From IMG/VR virus record IMGVR_UViG_2541047943_000002, positions 1-7,560 of that record: a stretch of DNA of 7,560 nucleotides; one strand, given 5' to 3'. This document shows positions 1 to 7,560 of this stretch, piece by piece. The stretch's first letter is position 1. Every line of letters begins with the position of its first letter. The notes under the pieces were generated by a model, which saw only the letters and a list, made by a program, of their open reading frames with translations, ran no database searches and was not told where the DNA came from. Source of the stretch: a virus. Taxonomy: Duplodnaviria; Heunggongvirae; Uroviricota; Caudoviricetes. The translations under genes and the position numbers were made by a program.

Positions 1-24
1 ATCGTTAAGCCGGGCCGTGAATCC

Positions 25-1011
25 ATGCCGGTATTCCACAATACCCGGGTACTGGTGGAGCCGGAACCGAAAAGCATGCGTAATCTGCCGTCCGGAGTCG
101 TTCCTGCCGTTCGACAGCCGCTGGCAGAGGATAAAATATTACTGCCATTTTTCAGCAACGAACGGGTGATTCGTGCTGCGGGTGGCGCTGGTGCACTGTC
201 TGACTGGTTATTACGTCACGTGAAATCCTGCCAGTGGCCACACGGTGATTATCATCACAGCGAAACCGTCATTCACCGTTACAGTACCGGCGCGATGGTG
301 TTGTGCTGGCACTGTGACAACCAGCTGCGCGACCAGACATCAGAATCACTCGATCAACTTGCTCAGCAGAATCTGGTTGCCTGGATGATTGACGTCATCC
401 GTCACGCAATAAGCGGTACGCAGGAGAGGGAGTTATCGCTGGCCGAATTATCCTGGTGGGCGGCCTGCAATCAGGTGGTGGATGCACTACCTGAGGCAGT
501 AGCGCGTCGTTCGCTGGGATTACCGGTGGAAAAAATCCGCTCCGTATACCGTGAGAGTGACATCGTACCGGGAGAACAGACAGCCATCAGCATACTGAAG
601 CAGCGCACAAAAAATATTGCGCTGCCACTTCACGTCCACCAGCAACAGCCCCCACCCCAGGAAAAGACGTTAGTAAGCATCGCCGTTGATCCGGAGTCTC
701 CGGCTCAGTACCTCCAGCGCCAGAAACCACAACGGGAAGAGATGCCTGTATACACGCGCTGGGTAAAAACGCAGAAATGCATGACGTGTGGCAATCAGGC
801 AGATGATCCGCATCACATCATTGGTCATGGACTGGGAGGGATGGGAACAAAGGCTGACGATTTGTTTGTTATTCCGCTGTGTCGTAAATGCCATAACGAA
901 CTACACGCCGGGGTAAAAGATTTTGAAGAAAAACACGGTAGTCAGTTGTTGTTGCTGATTCGTTTTTTAATGCACGCGAGAAATTCGGGTGTTCTGAAGT
1001 GGAAAGCATAA
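25..1011 (+). CDS. DUF968-family prophage protein (YdfU-like) with C-terminal Cys/His HNH-like zinc motif; probably 5'-truncated by the window edge
   Basis: 328-aa ORF; the frame is open upstream of the first ATG back to position 1 and there is no Shine-Dalgarno before 25, so the real start is probably upstream of the window. C-terminus carries CMTCGN...DPHHIIGHG...CRKCHNELH (CxxC...HH...CxxC-H...H). Immediately followed by rusA (TAA-ATG junction at 1009-1014). Family assignment is from memory. Confidence 0.7.
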   Translation: MPVFHNTRVLVEPEPKSMRNLPSGVVPAVRQPLAEDKILLPFFSNERVIRAAGGAGALSDWLLRHVKSCQWPHGDYHHSETVIHRYSTGAMVLCWHCDNQLRDQTSESLDQLAQQNLVAWMIDVIRHAISGTQERELSLAELSWWAACNQVVDALPEAVARRSLGLPVEKIRSVYRESDIVPGEQTAISILKQRTKNIALPLHVHQQQPPPQEKTLVSIAVDPESPAQYLQRQKPQREEMPVYTRWVKTQKCMTCGNQADDPHHIIGHGLGGMGTKADDLFVIPLCRKCHNELHAGVKDFEEKHGSQLLLLIRFLMHARNSGVLKWKA

Positions 1012-1392
1012 ATGACCGAACGCATAGAATTTGTTTTGCCTTACCCGCCGACGGTGAACACTTACTGGCGACGCCGTGGCAGCACATATTTTGTATCAAA
1101 AGCCGGGGAGCGTTATCGCCGGGCAGTGGCGCTTATTGTTCGCCAGCAGCGCTTGAAATTAAGCCTGTCCGGACGGTTGGCAATAAAAATTATTGCAGAA
1201 CCACCGGATAAGCGCCGCCGTGACCTGGACAATATTCTGAAAGCACCGCTGGATGCGCTGACGCATGCGGGGTTGCTAATGGACGATGAGCAGTTTGATG
1301 AAATCAATATCGTTCGTGTTCAGCCAGTATCTGGTGGACGTCTGGGGGTGAAGATTTACCCCATAATGCTTGAAGGGCAGGTCAAAAAATGA
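1012..1392 (+). CDS. rusA: Crossover-junction endodeoxyribonuclease RusA (Holliday junction resolvase)
   Basis: 126-aa translation has the RusA hallmarks: N-terminal LPYPPTVNTYWRRRG and the catalytic-region motif DKRRRDLDNILKAPLDALTHAGL. GGAAAG Shine-Dalgarno 6 nt upstream of the ATG; stop overlaps the next start (ATGA at 1389-1392). Confidence 0.88.
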   Translation: MTERIEFVLPYPPTVNTYWRRRGSTYFVSKAGERYRRAVALIVRQQRLKLSLSGRLAIKIIAEPPDKRRRDLDNILKAPLDALTHAGLLMDDEQFDEINIVRVQPVSGGRLGVKIYPIMLEGQVKK

Positions 1393-2210
1393 AACTGGAA
1401 GATTTACCGAAATACTACTCCCCAAAATCCCCCGGCCTGACTGATGCATCGGCCTCAACGTCGAAAGATGCGCTGAGTATCACTGATGTGATGGCCGCGC
1501 AGGGCATGACACAGAATCGGGCTGAGATGGGGTTTTCTGCGTTCCTTGGGAAAATGGGCATTAGTATGAATGACAGAGAGCGGGCAACAGAATTGCTGAC
1601 AGAATATGCACTCAGTCGGTGTGATCGCATGGCGGCGTTAAGAAAACTCCCGGCAGAAATAAAACCGGCAGTGATGCGTATTATGGCTTCGTATGCGTTT
1701 GAAGATTATGCCCGTAGCGCGGCGAGCAAAAAACAGTGCCCCTGCTGTCACGGAAAAAAATTTATTGAAAGCGAGGTTTTTACAAACAAGATCCAGTATC
1801 CGGATGGTAAGCCGCCAGTGTGGGCAAAGTGCACAAAAGGCGTGTATCCGTCTTACTGGGAGGAATGGAAAAAAGTCAGGGAGGTGGTCAAAGTTGCCTG
1901 TCCGGACTGTGGAGGGAAGGGAGAGGTATCCACTGCCTGTAAAGATTGTCGTGGGCGCGGTGTTGCCATTCATCGTGAAGAGTCTGAAAAACAGGGTGTG
2001 CCGGTTTTCAGAAACTGTCAGCGTTGTGGTGGGCGTGGCTATGAAAGATTACCTTCAACGGAGGCATTTAATGCCATATGTAATGTAACCGATGCCATAT
2101 CTCTTGATACATGGAAAAAAACAGTTAAACGTTTTTACGATACGCTGGTGGTGCAGTTTGATATTGAAGAAGCATGGGCAGAACAACAACTGAAAAAGGT
2201 GACCAGATAG
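1389..2210 (+). CDS. Q-like late-gene antitermination protein with four CxxCxGxG (DnaJ-type) zinc-finger repeats
   Basis: 273-aa ORF translationally coupled to rusA. Position (after rusA, immediately before a promoter plus intrinsic terminator) matches Q of lambdoid phages. Repeats CPCCHGKK, CPDCGGKG, CKDCRGRG, CQRCGGRG are visible in the translation. Q-family membership is inferred from context and recollection, not from a search. Confidence 0.6.
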   Translation: MKLEDLPKYYSPKSPGLTDASASTSKDALSITDVMAAQGMTQNRAEMGFSAFLGKMGISMNDRERATELLTEYALSRCDRMAALRKLPAEIKPAVMRIMASYAFEDYARSAASKKQCPCCHGKKFIESEVFTNKIQYPDGKPPVWAKCTKGVYPSYWEEWKKVREVVKVACPDCGGKGEVSTACKDCRGRGVAIHREESEKQGVPVFRNCQRCGGRGYERLPSTEAFNAICNVTDAISLDTWKKTVKRFYDTLVVQFDIEEAWAEQQLKKVTR

Positions 2211-2212
2211 CT

Positions 2213-2243
2213 TTGTTGATTTTTCCCGAATCTGTGGTAAATT
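2213..2243 (+). promoter_or_regulatory. pR'-like late promoter (-35 TTGATT 2216-2221, 16-bp spacer, extended -10 TGgTAAATT 2235-2243)
   Basis: Sigma70-like hexamers with correct spacing and a TG at -15/-14, lying directly after the Q-like gene and about 50 nt before an intrinsic terminator. This is the geometry expected for a Q-modified late promoter and its tR'. Confidence 0.5.
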
Positions 2244-2292
2244 TGCCCTAACGATGGGCGTTTTATGCCTGACGTTAGAAGATTTTTTACAC

Positions 2293-2315
2293 CCCGCCGC
2301 CTGGCGGGTTTTTTA
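2293..2315 (+). terminator. tR'-like intrinsic terminator (CCCGCC-gcct-GGCGGG + TTTTTTA)
   Basis: Perfect 6-bp GC stem with a 4-nt loop followed by a 6-T run. A 17-codon mini-ORF (2265-2318) with tandem AGA-AGA codons runs through it. Confidence 0.75.
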
Positions 2316-2436
2316 TGACTGAAATCGCGTCAGTACAGTAAACGCGCTGGTGGTTGCGAATACGGGTCTTTCAGCTTGCTGGCTTTTTCGACAAGAGTTA
2401 TTGGTATGTCACGTTAACCGGAAAAGGGAAAAAGAC

Positions 2437-2634
2437 ATGCTAAAACAGCAGGATATGACAGAAACCGCCAGAGTGGTGTTTAATGAATTAAGCGTTACCG
2501 ACCCGGCGACAGTCGGGGAGATTGCGCAGAATACTTACCTTTCACGTGAACGCTGCCAGTTAATACTGACCCAGCTTGTTATGGCGGGGCTGGCAGACTA
2601 TCAGTTCGGTTGTTACAGACGCCTTCAGTCCTGA
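2437..2634 (+). CDS. Small (65 aa) putative winged-helix DNA-binding protein
   Basis: ATG at 2437 is preceded by AAGGGA 8-9 nt upstream. The motif TVGEIAQNTYLSRERCQLILTQLVMAGL looks like an HTH recognition helix. The stop codon lies inside a strong intrinsic terminator. The longer track ORF from 2350 has no ribosome-binding site and is rejected. Confidence 0.5.
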   Translation: MLKQQDMTETARVVFNELSVTDPATVGEIAQNTYLSRERCQLILTQLVMAGLADYQFGCYRRLQS

Positions 2635-2648
2635 AGGCTTTTTTATTT
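2621..2648 (+). terminator. Intrinsic terminator (GCCTTCA-gtcc-TGAAGGC + TTTTTTATTT)
   Basis: 7-bp stem, 4-nt loop and T-run directly after the small ORF. Confidence 0.75.
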
Positions 2649-2658
2649 GTGGTAAATG
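2648..2658 (+). promoter_or_regulatory. Second copy of the TGTGGTAAAT extended -10-like element, upstream of the methyltransferase gene
   Basis: The 10-mer TGTGGTAAAT at 2648-2657 is identical to the pR'-like -10 region at 2233-2242. No good -35 is present, but extended -10 promoters can work without one. Confidence 0.3.
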
Positions 2659-2784
2659 GGCGGCTGGTGGGTGTTAGGGGCACTCACCAGCCATCTGCTC
2701 ATGCGTCCGGATCACAAGCAAACCTCAGGCCCACTGCTTTGCGCAAAAGCAGAATGAGCCTATCAGAGACAGGCTTAATGATCC

Positions 2785-3843
2785 ATGCTTAGTACTGTAA
2801 AAATATCCAGTTGTGAGTTAATCAACGCCGACTGCCTGGAATTTATCCGGTCGTTACCCGAAAATTCTGTTGACCTGATAGTCACGGACCCGCCGTACTT
2901 TAAAGTGAAGCCTGAGGGCTGGGATAACCAGTGGAAGGGCGACGATGATTACCTGAAGTGGCTGGACCAGTGTCTGGCGCAGTTCTGGCGGGTGCTGAAA
3001 CCTGCCGGAAGTCTTTACCTGTTCTGTGGCCATCGCCTGGCGTCTGATATCGAAATCATGATGCGTGAACGCTTCAGTGTGCTGAACCATATTATCTGGG
3101 CGAAGCCGTCCGGACGCTGGAACGGATGCAACAAGGAAAGCCTGCGGGCGTATTTCCCCGCCACAGAGCGCATTCTGTTCGCGGAACATTATCAGGGGCC
3201 GTATCGTCCGAAAGATGCCGGGTATGCGGCGAAGGGCAGTGCACTGAAACAGCATGTGATGGCCCCGCTGATTTCTTACTTTCGTGATGCGCGTGCTGCC
3301 CTGGGGATAACGGCAAAACAGATTGCTGATGCCACAGGAAAGAAAAACATGGTGTCGCACTGGTTCAGTGCCAGCCAGTGGCAGCTACCGGACGAAAGCG
3401 ATTATCTGAAATTACAGGCGCTGTTTGCCCGGGTGGCAGAAGATAAGCATCAGCGCGGAGAACTGGAAAAGCCACATCACCAACTGGTCAGCACATACAG
3501 TGAACTGAACCGGCAGTATACGGAACTGCAGAGTGAATATAAGCATCTGCGGCGGTATTTTGGTGTGACGGTGCAGGTGCCGTACACCGATGTGTGGACG
3601 CATAAACCGGTGCAGTACTATCCCGGGAAACATCCGTGCGAAAAACCGGCAGAAATGCTGCAGCAGATAATCAGCGCTAGCAGTCGTCCGGGTGACCTGA
3701 TTGCAGATTTTTTCATGGGGTCGGGTTCGACAGTGAAAGCGGCACTGGCGCTCGGGCGTCGTGCAACTGGCGTTGAGCTGGAGACTGAACGTTTTGAGCA
3801 GACGGTTCGGGAAGTACAGGATTTAGTCAGCCAGAACGGATGA
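2785..3843 (+). CDS. Beta-class DNA amino-methyltransferase (N6-adenine or N4-cytosine); apparently orphan
   Basis: 352-aa ORF with catalytic motif IV DPPY (VTDPPYF) near the N-terminus and the AdoMet-binding motif I FxGxG (DFFMGSGST) near the C-terminus, which is the beta-class order. No restriction endonuclease partner is in the window. Confidence 0.85.
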   Translation: MLSTVKISSCELINADCLEFIRSLPENSVDLIVTDPPYFKVKPEGWDNQWKGDDDYLKWLDQCLAQFWRVLKPAGSLYLFCGHRLASDIEIMMRERFSVLNHIIWAKPSGRWNGCNKESLRAYFPATERILFAEHYQGPYRPKDAGYAAKGSALKQHVMAPLISYFRDARAALGITAKQIADATGKKNMVSHWFSASQWQLPDESDYLKLQALFARVAEDKHQRGELEKPHHQLVSTYSELNRQYTELQSEYKHLRRYFGVTVQVPYTDVWTHKPVQYYPGKHPCEKPAEMLQQIISASSRPGDLIADFFMGSGSTVKAALALGRRATGVELETERFEQTVREVQDLVSQNG

Positions 3844-3883
3844 TATTGAAGAATTAATTACGCGTCGTTATTATGCGGCTCCC

Positions 3884-3959
3884 GGCCCTTTAGCTCAGTG
3901 GTGAGAGCGAGCGACTCATAATCGCCAGGTCGCTGGTTCAAATCCAGCAAGGGCCACCA
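3884..3959 (+). tRNA. ileZ: tRNA-Ile2 (anticodon CAU, ileX/ileZ-like; Met cannot be excluded from sequence alone)
   Basis: 76-nt cloverleaf: acceptor GGCCCTT/AAGGGCC, D-arm GCTC-AGTGGTGA-GAGC, anticodon loop CTCATAA, T-arm GCTGG-TTCAAAT-CCAGC, encoded CCA. Very close to E. coli ileX as I remember it. Gene symbol follows Stx-phage convention. Confidence 0.85.
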
Positions 3960-3968
3960 TATCACATA

Positions 3969-4045
3969 CCGCCATTAGCTCATCAGGATAGAGCGCCAGC
4001 TTTCGAAGCTGGTTGCGCGGAGTTCGGGTCCCCGAAGGCGGTCCA
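3969..4045 (+). tRNA. argN: tRNA-Arg (anticodon UCG), non-canonical features
   Basis: 77-nt cloverleaf with D-arm GCTC-ATCAGGATA-GAGC, anticodon stem CCAGC/GCTGG, loop TTTCGAA, T-loop TTCGGGT and encoded CCA. It has C1-G72, an A6/A67 mismatch, an A52/C62 mismatch and U73. Symbol assumed from the ileZ-argN-argO convention. Confidence 0.65.
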
Positions 4046-4058
4046 TTATCTGTATCCT

Positions 4059-4135
4059 GCGTTGTTAGCTCAGCCGGACAGAGCAATTGCCTTCTAAGCA
4101 ATCGGTCACTGGTTCGAATCCAGTACAACGCGCCA
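4059..4135 (+). tRNA. argO: tRNA-Arg (anticodon UCU, argU-like)
   Basis: 77-nt cloverleaf: perfect acceptor stem GCGTTGT/ACAACGC, anticodon loop CTTCTAA, T-arm ACTGG-TTCGAAT-CCAGT, G73, encoded CCA. Confidence 0.88.
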
Positions 4136-4179
4136 CACTTATTTTCCCTGGCTCGCTTTTGCGGGCTTTTTTTAAATGT

Positions 4180-4395
4180 CTCACAATTCAGGCGGTTGAC
4201 TGTTGTCTGGTTTGCGGGGAGTTTGTTAAAAGAAACTGGCATGGTGAATCCCCCTGTGCGGAGGGGCAATCAGCGAGTAGGTATATGGGATAATCGCGGA
4301 TTCAGGTGCTGGTACTGAATTCACCGGGAGGCACCCGGCACCATGCAATGGCACATAGCGCCACTCTCCAGCCCCTCTCCGGAGGGGCTTTTCTG
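4180..4395 (+). repeat. Tandem structured non-coding module, copy A (candidate sRNA / attenuator unit)
   Basis: Shares four conserved blocks with copy B: CTCACAATTCAG, GCATGGTGAATCCCCCTG(t/a)GCGGAGGGGC, CTGAA(t/c)TCACCGGGAGGCACCCGGCACCATG and AGCCCCTCTCCGGAGGGGCTTT. These are separated by non-homologous spacers. Ends in an intrinsic terminator. Confidence 0.6.
4372..4395 (+). terminator. Intrinsic terminator of module A (GCCCCTC-tccg-GAGGGGC + TTTTCT)
   Basis: 7-bp GC-rich stem, tetraloop and T-rich tail. Confidence 0.7.
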
Positions 4396-4583
4396 TGCCG
4401 GATACATCACAGTTTCTGGAACCTTAGGTACTACAGTATCAGTCAGGGTGCTATATTTTCAGATGTGATGAAAGCCTGTCAGCAGGCAGGGCGTATCGGA
4501 AATGACCCAGTAGAGAAAACGTTGACTCAGATACCGGTGCTGAGTTACCGGGAAACCGGCATCACATGACCGCTATCCTTCCA

Positions 4584-4610
4584 GGCCCATCCGCTCCGGT
4601 GGGCCTTTTT
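4584..4610 (+). terminator. Intrinsic terminator in the inter-module spacer (GGCCCATC ... GGTGGGCC + TTTTTA)
   Basis: 8-bp stem (one G-U pair), 6-nt loop and 5-T run. Sits 17 nt after the stop of a 33-codon ORF (4466-4567). Confidence 0.65.
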
Positions 4611-4646
4611 ACTGCAGAAAACAGGTTCCCCGTTAAATGCTATGTT

Positions 4647-4880
4647 GCTCACAATTCAGTAAGTTGACAGTTGCCTGTCAGACTGGGCATTTGTTAAAAA
4701 AATTTCGCATGGTGAATCCCCCTGAGCGGAGGGGCGACTGGTGACGGTATAATCTCTGATTATCAAAACGAGAATGACGCGGGTTTAGTGGCACCGGGCT
4801 GAACTCACCGGGAGGCACCCGGCACCATGTGCATGATGATACAGATACGCGGCTTTAGCCCCTCTCCGGAGGGGCTTTCT
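4647..4880 (+). repeat. Tandem structured non-coding module, copy B (candidate sRNA / attenuator unit)
   Basis: Same four conserved blocks as copy A; contains a perfect TATAAT at 4748-4753 in its variable centre; ends in an identical terminator. Confidence 0.6.
4858..4880 (+). terminator. Intrinsic terminator of module B (GCCCCTC-tccg-GAGGGGC + TTTCTTAT)
   Basis: Identical stem-loop to the module A terminator, followed by a T-rich tail. Confidence 0.7.
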
Positions 4881-5109
4881 TATGGACAAAAAAAGCCCGC
4901 GCTGGGAGACGCGGGCGGCAAGGAATAAACAATAAAACGTGAAGTAATATTTCAGCTGGCGAATAATACCCTATAGTAATCACTCTGCGCAACTGCGCGG
5001 TCTTTTTCGAATTGCGGGCTGTAGTCTCCCTTCTGCCATTGTCCTGTAACTTCCGGACTTCAGCCTGCTCCTTATCTGACTCACAACATTATCCCGCCCG
5101 GGAGGATTC

Positions 5110-6963
5110 ATGGCATTTAAACACTATGACGTGGTCAGGGCGGCATCGCCGTCAGACCTTGCGAAACGACTGACACAAAAACTGAAGGAGGGCTGGCAGC
5201 CGTTTGGTAGTCCGGTGGCCATAACCCCTTATACCCTGATGCAGGCGATTGCAGCAGAAGGTGATGTGGTCGTCAGTGGTGCAACTGAGCCGGAGTGGTA
5301 CTACGTCATCGTACTGGCCGGGCAATCCAATGCCATGGCTTACGGTGAAGGGCTTCCGCTTCCGGATTCATACGATGCGCCCCATCCGCGCATTAAGCAA
5401 CTGGCCCGTCGTAACACAGTGACTCCCGGTGGTGAAGTATGCGTATTTAACGACATCATTCCTGCTGACCATTGTCTGCATGATGTTCAGGATATGAGTA
5501 CGATTAACCATCCCCGGGCTGACCTGAGCAAAGGGCAGTACGGCTGTGTCGGACAGGGCTTACATATTGCCAAAAAACTGCTTCCGTATATCCCTAATAA
5601 TGCGGGGATCCTGCTGGTACCATGCTGTCGTGGTGGTTCGGCATTCACCCAGGGCACGGAGGGGACATTCAGCGAGTCCACGGGAGCCAGTCAGGATTCG
5701 GCTCGCTGGGGAGTGGGTAAGCCGTTATATCAGGATCTGCTTTTCCGCACGAAGGCAGCATTGCAGAAAAACCCGAAAAACGTTTTGCTGGCGATATGCT
5801 GGATGCAGGGGGAATTCGATATGACGAATGCCAGTTACGCCCAGCAGCCAGCAGCATTTCTTGCAATGGTACAGCAGTTCCGTGCTGACCTTGCCGGGCT
5901 GGCAGCGCAGTGTCACGGTGGAAGTCCGGCATCAGTCCCCTGGATTTGTGGCGACACGACATACGCGTGGAAACAAGAACACGGTACGCAATATGAAGTG
6001 GTATATGGTGCATATAAAGGTAAAGAATCCCAGCAGATTTATTTTGTTCCCTTTATGACCGATGGTAGCGGAGTTAATACACCGACAAACAACCCGTCAG
6101 AAGATCCTGATATTGCCGGGTCTGGTTATTACGGTTCGGCATCCCGAACGAACAAAAACTGGGTATCATCAAATCGCCCGACGCATTTCAGCTCATGGGC
6201 GCGTCGTGGCATTATTCCCGATCGTATGGCAACTGCTATTCTGAACGTAGCCGGTCGCACCTTAGCCTTCATTAGTGGTAAGGCACCGGAAATCAAACCC
6301 TCGCCCGGCGGCGACACGCCATCGGGGCCGTCTGAAGATGCATCCATACGCACAATCTCCCTGTTGCCGACAGCCGGAGACGCTGCTGCGCAGGGCTGGA
6401 GCATTAAGAATGGCGGAATTCAGTTGTCAGATGGTGTATTTAAGATCACCAAGCAGAGCAATAAAGCCTGGTCCCTGACGCGCCCGGTGGATGACGCAGT
6501 CTCCCTGCTGACACGGGGTGGCAGACTGAGCTGTAAGTTTCGACTGTCAGGCGCACTGACCAACAACCAGTTCGGTCTGGGAATTTATCTGTATACCGAT
6601 GTAGCGTTACCTGACGTCGTGGCGATGACCGGGACTGGTAACCCGTTCCTGATGTCGTTCTTCACCCAGACCACAGACGGCAAACTGAATCTGATGCATC
6701 ACAAGAAAGCAGGAAACACAAAGTTGGGCGAGTTCGGGAATTACAGTAACGACTGGCAGACGCTGGAGCTGGTGTTCACCGCCGGCAGTGCCACGGTTAC
6801 TCCGAAACTGAATGGAGTGGCTGGCCCGGCATTCCAGGTCATAAAAGACAGTCTGACACTGGGGCTGAATGCGCTGACGCTGACGGATATTACCAAAAAT
6901 GCAGCGTATGGCGTTGAGATAGAAAGTCTGGTGCTGGAGATAAATGCACCGGCATCATCATAA
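5110..6963 (+). CDS. nanS-p: Prophage-encoded sialate O-acetylesterase (NanS-p type: N-terminal DUF1737-like region, SGNH/SASA esterase core, roughly 250-aa C-terminal domain of unknown function)
   Basis: 617-aa ORF with GGAGG Shine-Dalgarno 5 nt upstream. The N-terminus MAFKHYDVV...GWQPFGSP matches the NanS-p/YjhS prophage family as I remember it. A GQSN catalytic block (VLAGQSNAMAYGEG) is present. The position, directly before the holin, is typical of Stx-phage-like prophages. Confidence 0.8.
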   Translation: MAFKHYDVVRAASPSDLAKRLTQKLKEGWQPFGSPVAITPYTLMQAIAAEGDVVVSGATEPEWYYVIVLAGQSNAMAYGEGLPLPDSYDAPHPRIKQLARRNTVTPGGEVCVFNDIIPADHCLHDVQDMSTINHPRADLSKGQYGCVGQGLHIAKKLLPYIPNNAGILLVPCCRGGSAFTQGTEGTFSESTGASQDSARWGVGKPLYQDLLFRTKAALQKNPKNVLLAICWMQGEFDMTNASYAQQPAAFLAMVQQFRADLAGLAAQCHGGSPASVPWICGDTTYAWKQEHGTQYEVVYGAYKGKESQQIYFVPFMTDGSGVNTPTNNPSEDPDIAGSGYYGSASRTNKNWVSSNRPTHFSSWARRGIIPDRMATAILNVAGRTLAFISGKAPEIKPSPGGDTPSGPSEDASIRTISLLPTAGDAAAQGWSIKNGGIQLSDGVFKITKQSNKAWSLTRPVDDAVSLLTRGGRLSCKFRLSGALTNNQFGLGIYLYTDVALPDVVAMTGTGNPFLMSFFTQTTDGKLNLMHHKKAGNTKLGEFGNYSNDWQTLELVFTAGSATVTPKLNGVAGPAFQVIKDSLTLGLNALTLTDITKNAAYGVEIESLVLEINAPASS

Positions 6964-7046
6964 AAAGTGAGCCAGTCAAATGGAAGGTATCGTTAAACTC
7001 ACCGGTAGTGTCAGTGGGTCGTCTGAGATGCCTGCATGAGTTATCA

Positions 7047-7078
7047 GAGCCATCAGTACTTAACTGGTGGCTTTTTTT
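7047..7078 (+). terminator. Intrinsic terminator between esterase and holin genes
   Basis: Stem AGAGCCATCAG / CTGGTGGCT (with a G-U pair), 7-nt loop, then TTTTTTT. Confidence 0.6.
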
Positions 7079-7113
7079 ATTGTTGTCAGCTTCCGGATAA
7101 CGGGAGACGGGGT

Positions 7114-7329
7114 ATGGACCAGATGGAAAAAATCACAACAGGTGTGTCATACACCACGTCAGCGGTGGGAACGGGCTACTGGTTCCTGCAGTTGCTGGAC
7201 AGGGTTTCCCCGTCTCAGTGGGCGGCAATAGGCGTGCTGGGGAGTCTGCTGTTTGGGCTGCTGACATATCTGACTAACCTGTATTTCAAAATCAGAGAGG
7301 ACCGTCGTAAGGCTGCACGGGGAGAGTAA
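7114..7329 (+). CDS. S: S21-type pinholin (class II holin) with dual-start motif M-D-Q-M
   Basis: 71-aa product [71 protein letters not shown] closely resembles the phage 21 S pinholin as I remember it (two transmembrane segments, charged C-terminus). GGAG is 8 nt upstream. The 97-aa track ORF from 7036 starts before the terminator and is rejected. Confidence 0.85.
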
Positions 7330-7333
7330 TTCA

Positions 7334-7560
7334 ATGACTCAAAACTATAAACTGATTGTGAAAGGGATCCGCAATTTTGAGAATAAAGTTACGGTAACTT
7401 TAGCGTTACGGGACAAAAAACGCTTTGACGGTGAAATTTTTGACCTGGACATCTCGCTGGACCGTGTTGAAGGTGCCGCGCTGGAGTTTTATGAGGCAGC
7501 AGCCAGAAGGAGCATCAGACAGGTCTTCCTGGATGTTGCTGCCGGGTTATGTGAAGGGGA
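7334..7560 (+). CDS. 5' part of a late-region gene of unknown function (YdfR/DUF1327-like), truncated by the window end
   Basis: ATG at 7334 with GGAGAG 6 nt upstream. The frame stays open for 75 codons to the window end (MTQNYKLIVKGIRNFENKVTVTLALRDKKRFDGEIFDLD...). Position between holin and the expected endolysin matches ydfR-like genes. Contains AGA, AGG and AGA codons within a few residues. Family recalled, not verified. Confidence 0.55.
   Translation, partial: MTQNYKLIVKGIRNFENKVTVTLALRDKKRFDGEIFDLDISLDRVEGAALEFYEAAARRSIRQVFLDVAAGLCEG

Follow-up and report, generated by a model that had tools for sequence, protein, structure and literature searches.

Phages with a Q-lambda-family antiterminator (PF03589) control their late genes from a compact cassette that consists of the Q gene, the PR' promoter, a sigma-dependent pause element, a terminator and the late genes themselves (PMC9388147). 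In lambda, the pause element AACGAT at +1 to +6 of the transcript is a -10-like sequence that is re-bound by sigma70, the GGG behind it then being discriminator-like; polymerase pauses at +16, and the 20 bp that follow the pause site (+17 to +36) modulate Q-dependent arrest and escape (PMC4005639). Here we describe a putative cassette of this kind at positions 2213-2318 of a 7,560-nucleotide (nt) stretch of viral DNA (hereafter ‘the window’; positions 1 to 7,560 of IMG/VR record IMGVR_UViG_2541047943_000002), which is the late-control region of a lambdoid Escherichia coli prophage and matches many E. coli chromosomes at 96% identity along its entire length. An earlier note on this sequence had proposed a Q-utilisation late promoter with a short terminated leader, and had considered either coincidence or a regulatory link between a phage tRNA-Arg(UCU) and two consecutive AGA codons in a short open reading frame (ORF) that runs through the terminator. 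Direct reading and a tRNA call place the promoter, extended -10, terminator, mini-ORF, AGA pair and tRNA-Arg(UCU) gene where that note had put them. We consider it very probable that 2213-2318 is a lambda-type late-gene control cassette of a Q-lambda-family lambdoid prophage, and that the mini-ORF is a by-product of it.

The Q gene, the late promoter and its terminator

Judged by its matches, the gene upstream of the element is a Q-lambda-family antiterminator. Its product matches Pfam PF03589 at 2.5e-52 and the Q-lambda structures 7ubm, 4mo1 and 7ubj at 1e-41 to 5e-21 (PDB 7ubm at 1.2e-41, over residues 1-113 and 182-273), is 41% identical to lambda Q, and carries an insert of ~66 amino acids (aa) that is absent from lambda Q (residues about 114-181) and holds two more CxxC motifs. 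An alignment with the Q proteins of lambda, P22, HK225, SfV, phi80, ES18 and Fels-1 places the same long form in all of these phages but lambda and P22. The insert is a weak match to the DnaJ central domain and sits ahead of the lambda-type zinc ribbon. The Q stop codon (2208-2210) lies 5 nt before the -35 hexamer, and the features of the element are as follows.

1389-2210, + strand: Q antiterminator gene, 273 aa, long form of the Q-lambda family (Pfam, PDB matches, alignment)
2216-2221, + strand: -35 hexamer TTGATT of pR', read directly
2222-2237, + strand: 16-nt promoter spacer TTTCCCGAATCTGTGG, candidate Q binding element
2235-2243, + strand: extended -10 TGgTAAATT (TGg 2235-2237, -10 hexamer TAAATT 2238-2243)
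2250-2258, + strand: AACGAT pause element plus GGG, with the putative transcription start at A2250 (by homology)
2250-2276, + strand: predicted 5'-terminal leader hairpin (AACG/CGUU plus GGGCGU/AUGCCU, -9.3 kcal/mol), which would sequester the mini-ORF start codon
2250-2315, + strand: predicted terminated leader RNA of ~65 nt, made without Q, from the positions of start and terminator
2265-2318, + strand: 17-codon mini-ORF MPDVRRFFTPRRLAGFL, ATG 2265 to TGA 2316-2318, with AGA AGA at 2277-2282; judged a non-functional by-product
2277-2282, + strand: AGAAGA hexamer at +28 to +33, mostly single-stranded in the predicted fold (unpaired probability 0.64-0.79)
2293-2314, + strand: tR' intrinsic terminator, a 6-bp G+C stem CCCGCC/GGCGGG (2293-2308) with a 4-nt loop, followed by T6 (2309-2314)

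The -35 hexamer aligns with TTGACT of lambda and P22 and with TTGCAT of SfV and phi80. The -10 hexamer TAAATT is identical to that of lambda and P22 pR', as is AACGATGGG six bases further on, and the -10 hexamer together with the next 15 nt is nearly identical to pR' of both phages (pairwise, GGTAAATTTGCCCTAACGATGGG in the window and GGTAAATTTGACTCAACGATGGG in lambda). Specifically, AACGAT plus GGG at 2250-2258 is identical to +1 to +9 of lambda pR', and at +9 the similarity to the lambda leader stops. The lambda promoter shares the -10 hexamer with the window, which has a true TGn extended -10 in addition. In the P22 record the 5' nucleotide of the late RNA is the first A of AACGAT, with tR' 30-58 nt further on; by homology, transcription in the window would start at A2250, from a promoter that is probably constitutive, and polymerase would pause at about +16/+17, that is at 2265-2266. 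As a side observation, TGTGGTAAAT at 2648-2660, right after the terminator of a downstream 65-aa ORF, repeats 10 nt from the extended -10 stretch of pR' (2233-2242); its hexamer is TAAATG, it has neither a good -35 nor an AACGAT element, and it could be either fortuitous or what is left of a promoter.

Across more than 100 related loci the -35, the TGn and the -10 are kept, and -6 to -1 is variable. The spacer co-varies with the Q clade: TTTCCCGAATCTG goes with Q proteins that are 56-89% identical, and TTTCCCGAAACTG with that of phiEt88 (52%); the SfV group has TTTTCAAAAAATATGGA, and the lambda and P22 type is TATTGAATAAAATTGGG (lambda). The spacer is common to phages with a related Q (640R1, HK225, PHB10, phiEt88 and EhrS_49), and the phi80 record annotates a gp17(Q) binding site, TCGCGGA, at the matching place, which resembles TCCCGAA of the window. 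Such co-variation with Q clades is as expected of a Q binding element, for which the spacer is our candidate.

The terminator stem begins ~44 nt after A2250, and the tR' hairpin folds at -12.6 kcal/mol. Loop, stem sequence and T-run length are variable among relatives, in which the stem variants can still pair (for example CCCGTC/GGCGGG, with a G-U pair).

The layout itself is conserved. Among 25 phages chosen solely by Q protein similarity (32-97% identity), in which the region behind Q was fetched, 22 carry a promoter, a -10-like hexamer and an intrinsic terminator just downstream of Q, the pause hexamers being AACGAT, AACGCT, AACAGT, AACACT, AATCAT, AATCGT, AAGGAT and AAGCAT. The exceptions are mEp554 and MagusPhagus, with ORFs directly after Q, and lambda, in which promoter and pause element are present and tR', ~190 nt downstream, ends the 194-nt 6S RNA. 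The pR'/tR' unit is kept in hundreds of related loci, and the leader type of the window occurs in 1,682 of 5,426 complete E. coli genomes (~31%). In the Stx2a phage Stx2_EH1910 (2210-6261), a Q that is 97% identical is followed by the same leader, the 65-aa ORF, a methylase and three tRNAs, and then directly by stx2A and stx2B; this gene order indicates that, in some Stx phages at least, expression of Shiga toxin 2a is under the control of this type of leader.

Homologous leaders were collected from Q-based scans, from a pattern scan without constraint on the ORF start or the hexamer, and from named phages. The Q-based scans of viral contigs gave only near-identical Q proteins, and diversity came from tblastn over named phages and from the pattern scan. 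A scan of genome contigs with GGTAAATTNNNNNNAACGATGGG returned mostly lambda DNA contamination and chance matches, the informative hits being only E. albertii, one lambda variant and one uncultured-bacterium contig. Twenty-one contigs of unrelated taxa (Pseudoxanthomonas, Psychrobacter, Bradyrhizobium, Enterococcus, Nonomuraea and others) carry the exact lambda pR' region; many are short and of low coverage, and they are almost certainly lambda DNA contamination of assemblies. The uncultured-bacterium contig (CBCTJT010000023.1, 6229-6251, - strand) carries a promoter in which TGTGGTAAATT and AACGATGGG recur, together with a short terminated leader; its spacer is different (TTTTCCAGTTTC), no ATG stands at +16, and its relationship to the window-type unit is more distant.

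Our assignment is carried by what was observed directly, namely the family of Q, the identity of the -10 and pause elements, the terminator, the conserved layout and the missing coding signature of the mini-ORF detailed below, and it bears out the late promoter with a short terminated leader that the earlier note had read from the sequence. On the lambda model, sigma70 RNA polymerase would start at about A2250 from TTGATT, the 16-nt spacer and TGgTAAATT; sigma70 region 2 would then re-bind the -10-like AACGAT (+1 to +6), helped by GGG, and hold polymerase at ~+16/+17 (2265-2266). Without Q, polymerase would escape the pause and terminate at the tR' hairpin and T6 (2293-2314), releasing a ~65-nt leader in which a single-stranded, A/U-rich stretch separates the 5' hairpin from that of the terminator. 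With Q present, the protein would bind the promoter spacer during the pause and load onto polymerase, which, so modified, would read past tR' and the further terminator-like hairpins downstream and express orf65, the methylase, three tRNAs, STnc100 RNAs, an esterase and the lysis genes. The mini-ORF would arise along the way: its ATGCC and GACGTT would be the 3' half of the 5' hairpin (pairing with GGGCG and AACG), and AGAAGA a single-stranded spacer.

The leader RNA and the mini-ORF

By homology, the terminated RNA would end at about 2313-2317. The whole leader folds at -21.9 kcal/mol (z = -2.45); folds that stop short of the terminator 3' arm contain only the 5' hairpin, with no alternative partner for the terminator 5' arm and no antiterminator fold, and an Rfam search gave no family match at the leader (2250-2316). 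The AGAAGA position falls in the 20-bp post-pause stretch that affects Q-dependent pause escape in lambda.

The late transcript begins, in most Q-lambda-family leaders, with 4-5 nt that are complementary to ~+19 to +27, and the partner changes with the pause element (AACG/CGTT, AACA/TGTT, AATCA/TGATT, AAGGA/TTCTT). Per-sequence shuffles of this 5' stem were not significant (p 0.006-0.76), and RNAalifold predicted nothing on a MAFFT alignment of the leaders because the 3' arms are out of register. A conserved 5'-terminal stem in Q-lambda-family leaders is accordingly only suggestive.

The signals expected of a translated mini-ORF are poor. The 20 nt upstream of ATG 2265 form at best a -2.6 kcal/mol duplex with the anti-Shine-Dalgarno sequence, the weakest of 11 window starts tested; the AUG has an unpaired probability of 0.0-0.2, and the only G-rich stretch upstream is likewise paired in the 5' hairpin. 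The stop codon (2316-2318) begins two bases past the T6 tract. Intrinsic terminators release the RNA at or before such a position, so the stop lies at or beyond the expected release point and the terminated leader would be a non-stop message. From the AUG to the end of the terminator is only ~50 nt, and the sole expected pause comes before the AUG exits polymerase, so that a ribosome would hardly be in time. A frame that is open across the stem and T-run is, given an ATG at +16, not in itself a sign of coding, as G+C stems and T-runs seldom contain stops; an annotated ORF of lambda (orf-64) likewise begins in the leader and crosses tR'.

Comparison among relatives points the same way. In 38 unique AACGATGGG...CGTT leader cores, the position of the ATG is occupied by ATG in 19, GTG in 3, ATA in 9, GTA in 5, GCG in 1 and ACT in 1, so that a start codon is missing in 16. 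Predicted products of SfV-type leaders (MSTVDKI and MTRV, each followed by a stop, MSAVNEIITNLASAGF..., MSTVGKCQKPAAERVF... and others) range from 4 to >30 residues and are unrelated beyond the first four residues, which the hairpin encodes. In the window-type promoter class, which comprises 35 unique 100-nt leaders, a start codon is present in 31, AGAAG(A/G) in 30 and a frame open through the terminator in 27, all three together in 26; these variants would encode 24 different peptides. Substitutions fall at first and second codon positions (TTT to ATT, GTT or CTT; CCC to ACC or GCC). T-runs that are longer or shorter by one base cause frameshifts, the terminator loop contains a stop in three variants, and in one the ATG has become ATA with AGAAGA kept. 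Read in this way, the variation is the pattern of a non-coding sequence under RNA or DNA signals and not that of a peptide. The earlier note had named absence of the AGA pair from homologous leaders as a refutation of its link; the pair is absent from SfV-type, HK225, P22, lambda, phi80, ES18 and other leaders outside the closest clade, and persists, as AGAAG(A/G), within the window type (30/35).

Alternative readings of the leader

Several points weigh against the cassette with a by-product ORF. A generic sigma70 consensus scan did not call the promoter (8/12 matches against a threshold of 9), and we therefore relied on homology, from which the start site, the pause and the dependence on Q would all follow; the spacer, moreover, is unlike the lambda Q binding element. 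Within the window-type class, +1 to +33 including AGAAG(A/G) is more conserved than -6 to -1 and +34 to +45. Where 3.5 kb or more of sequence is available behind the leader, a tRNA-Arg(UCU) gene lies within 5 kb downstream of 9/19 window-type leaders with the AGA pair as against 0/44 of the SfV type. Something constrains +1 to +33, and a clade-specific coding role is conceivable. Three non-coding candidates may supply the constraint: the pause element, the 3' half of the 5' hairpin (suggestive only) and the post-pause escape region. A fourth possibility is that AGAAGA-U6 is the Hfq or target-pairing region of a small RNA.

This last possibility leads to the alternative that survives best, namely that the ~65-nt leader is also a trans-acting, Hfq-binding small RNA, constitutive in lysogens, with AGAAGA-UUUUUU binding Hfq or pairing with targets. 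We entertain it tentatively, by analogy, and regard it as unlikely on present evidence. The architecture is of the Hfq type, with an A/U-rich region (unpaired probability 0.64-0.99) and a U6-tailed terminator, and there are precedents: StxS, a product of termination at tR' of the PR' transcript, is a regulator of rpoS and stx1 (PMC7547250), and a role of this kind has been suggested for lambda 6S RNA, which is Hfq-bound and present in lysogens (bioRxiv 10.1101/2024.10.31.621285). The presence of the unit in 31% of complete E. coli genomes, the conservation of +1 to +33 above its flanks and the ATG-less variant that keeps AGAAGA would all suit such a role. The leader, however, has no similarity to lambda 6S RNA beyond +1 to +9, no recognised relation to StxS and no Rfam match, and across Q-lambda-family leaders it is the A-richness of the spacer sequence that is kept and not the sequence. 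Conservation in one clade is also explicable by recent common ancestry or by pause escape needs at the DNA level (+17 to +36 in lambda).

Far less probable is a translated leader peptide whose AGA codons couple tR' read-through to the supply of tRNA-Arg(UCU), the ribosome either blocking the hairpin, as in pyrBI, or stalling at AGA-AGA. The ORF does span the terminator, 10 nt separate the AGA pair from the stem, and start, AGA-AGR and open frame occur together in the 26 window-type variants; against this stand the weakest Shine-Dalgarno in the window, an AUG inside a -9.3 kcal/mol hairpin, a stop at or beyond the release point and the lack of an antiterminator fold in the truncated folds. Going by the pause data for lambda (PMC4005639), polymerase would be at tR' before a ribosome initiates, as the +16 pause precedes exit of the AUG. 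The missing starts, the tolerated substitutions and frameshifts and the restriction of the AGA pair to one clade argue likewise. The hexamer is also no more frequent in the window than chance would have it (AGAAGA observed 3 times, 2.81 expected from shuffles). With the weak Shine-Dalgarno, the paired AUG and the unconserved ORF, this leaves the link between AGA-AGA and tRNA-Arg(UCU) unsupported. Such a link, if true, would have added a new and interesting level of regulation, but coincidence is what the comparative data speak for.

An extension of the same idea, that the tRNA gene in the late unit, 1.7 kb downstream, provides a tRNA-sensing positive feedback alongside Q, we hold to be just as improbable. 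Phage tRNA-Arg(UCU) genes are found solely behind window-type leaders, but 10 of the 19 AGA-pair leaders have none within 5 kb, so that the pair persists independently of the phage tRNA. The association with the leader class is most simply explained as linkage of the Q and leader module with an Stx-type late region. Within the window, AGA use is highest in the Q gene, where it makes up 5 of 18 Arg codons. Q, which is early, precedes tR', and the gene of the phage tRNA-Arg(UCU) follows that terminator; should any process rely on the host tRNA-Arg(UCU), it is the synthesis of Q itself.

Finally, that 2293-2314 is only the terminator of the early rightward Q transcript and that the promoter-like hexamers are fortuitous would agree with the silence of the generic scan at 2213-2243, but scarcely with a -10 and next 15 nt that match lambda and P22 pR' almost base for base, with the promoter, qut or Q-binding site and terminator annotated at homologous positions in the P22, epsilon34 and phi80 records, or with a -35, TGn and -10 kept where -6 to -1 varies, and we give it very little credence.

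The late region and related systems

Around the cassette, the window carries the following features.

25-1011: DUF968 protein
1012-1392: RusA
2437-2634: 65-aa ORF (orf65)
2785-3843: DNA methylase
3884-4135: tRNA cluster (CAU, Arg-UCG, Arg-UCU)
4059-4135, + strand: tRNA-Arg(UCU), in the late transcription unit; listed as context only
4210-4887: STnc100 small RNA copies, two full and one weak
5110-6963: sialate-esterase-like gene
7114-7329: holin (profile match), a lysis gene downstream of tR'
from 7334: DUF1327/YdfR gene
2621-2638, 4150-4167, 4370-4389, 4583-4606, 4857-4876, 4985-5000 and 7046-7074: examples of terminator-like hairpins

Terminator-like sites number 19 in the window, against 7.8 expected from shuffles, and most are on the + strand within the late unit; this excess fits a late unit that would be read only by Q-modified polymerase. 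The first tRNA (3884-3959, anticodon CAU) is called tRNA-Met by ARAGORN, and its RefSeq homologue is annotated tRNA-Ile, which suggests a lysidine-modified AUA reader. The cluster would then presumably serve AUA, CGA/CGG and AGA/AGG, all rare in E. coli. A search on ileZ/argN/argO gave no match in the literature collection that was searched.

The STnc100 copies (Rfam RF02076) sit between the tRNA cluster and the esterase gene, each closed by a terminator-like hairpin. Those at 4210-4400 and 4678-4887 are full (136 and 165 bits), and a degenerate copy at 4439-4612 scores 30 bits, below threshold. A 2026 preprint relates STnc100 to PasD small RNAs and describes an association with esterase genes. 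The earlier note had also pointed to rare codons in the late gene at 7334 and in ‘module leaders’. The former does contain AGA AGG and another AGA, yet AGA is not commoner in late genes than in early ones (5.1 vs 8.2 per 1000 codons); the latter are these non-coding STnc100 copies, in which codons have no meaning.

The unit would set the timing of late genes in E. coli prophages of a very common group, and the same module is followed immediately by stx2AB in at least one Stx2a phage. Its Q-lambda-type identity lets mechanistic knowledge of lambda transfer directly, and its leader RNA, probably constitutive, is flagged as a candidate prophage small RNA comparable to StxS.

In E. coli attenuators of the pyrBI type, a leader ORF overlaps a promoter-proximal intrinsic terminator, and the short frame running through the terminator near the promoter is the feature that the window shares with them. 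The window differs in that a usable ribosome binding site is lacking, neither the peptide nor any regulatory codons are conserved among homologues, no pause would let a ribosome catch up, and the stop lies beyond the release point.

The lambda PR'-qut-tR'/6S RNA system is far closer, with the same PF03589 Q, TAAATT -10 and AACGAT plus GGG at +1 to +9, the promoter directly after Q and a terminator before the late genes. It differs in its leader (194 nt vs ~65 nt) and its spacer sequence; the window promoter has a true TGn and a weaker -35, the window Q has the ~66-aa CxxC-rich insert, and the window late region has a methylase, three tRNAs, STnc100 RNAs and an esterase before the lysis genes. 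The short leaders of P22 (P-late/qut/t-late, AF527608) and phi80 (pR', JX871397) are similar in length, the distance from start to terminator being 30-60 nt in P22 and ~50-80 nt in phi80, and in bearing a pause element at the start of the transcript, AACGAT in P22 and AACGCT in phi80. Phi80 further shares the long-form Q and the resembling TCGCGGA site, whereas P22 has a short, lambda-length Q and a lambda-type spacer; in both, the leader after +9 is unrelated and lacks the AGA pair.

StxS of Stx1 and Stx2a phages resembles the window leader in that a constitutive PR' transcript ends at tR' in lysogens to give a short, in its case Hfq-bound, RNA upstream of tRNA, stx or late genes (Sy, Lan and Tree 2020, PMC7547250). 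It belongs to a 144-aa Q clade, and its 258-nt primary transcript is processed to 74 nt; no annotation or Rfam match for StxS lies at the window leader, the sequences themselves not having been compared directly. By analogy, the window leader may work as StxS and lambda 6S RNA do, with no recognised sequence relationship to either, and the pR'/tR' unit is a very common further case of a textbook family.

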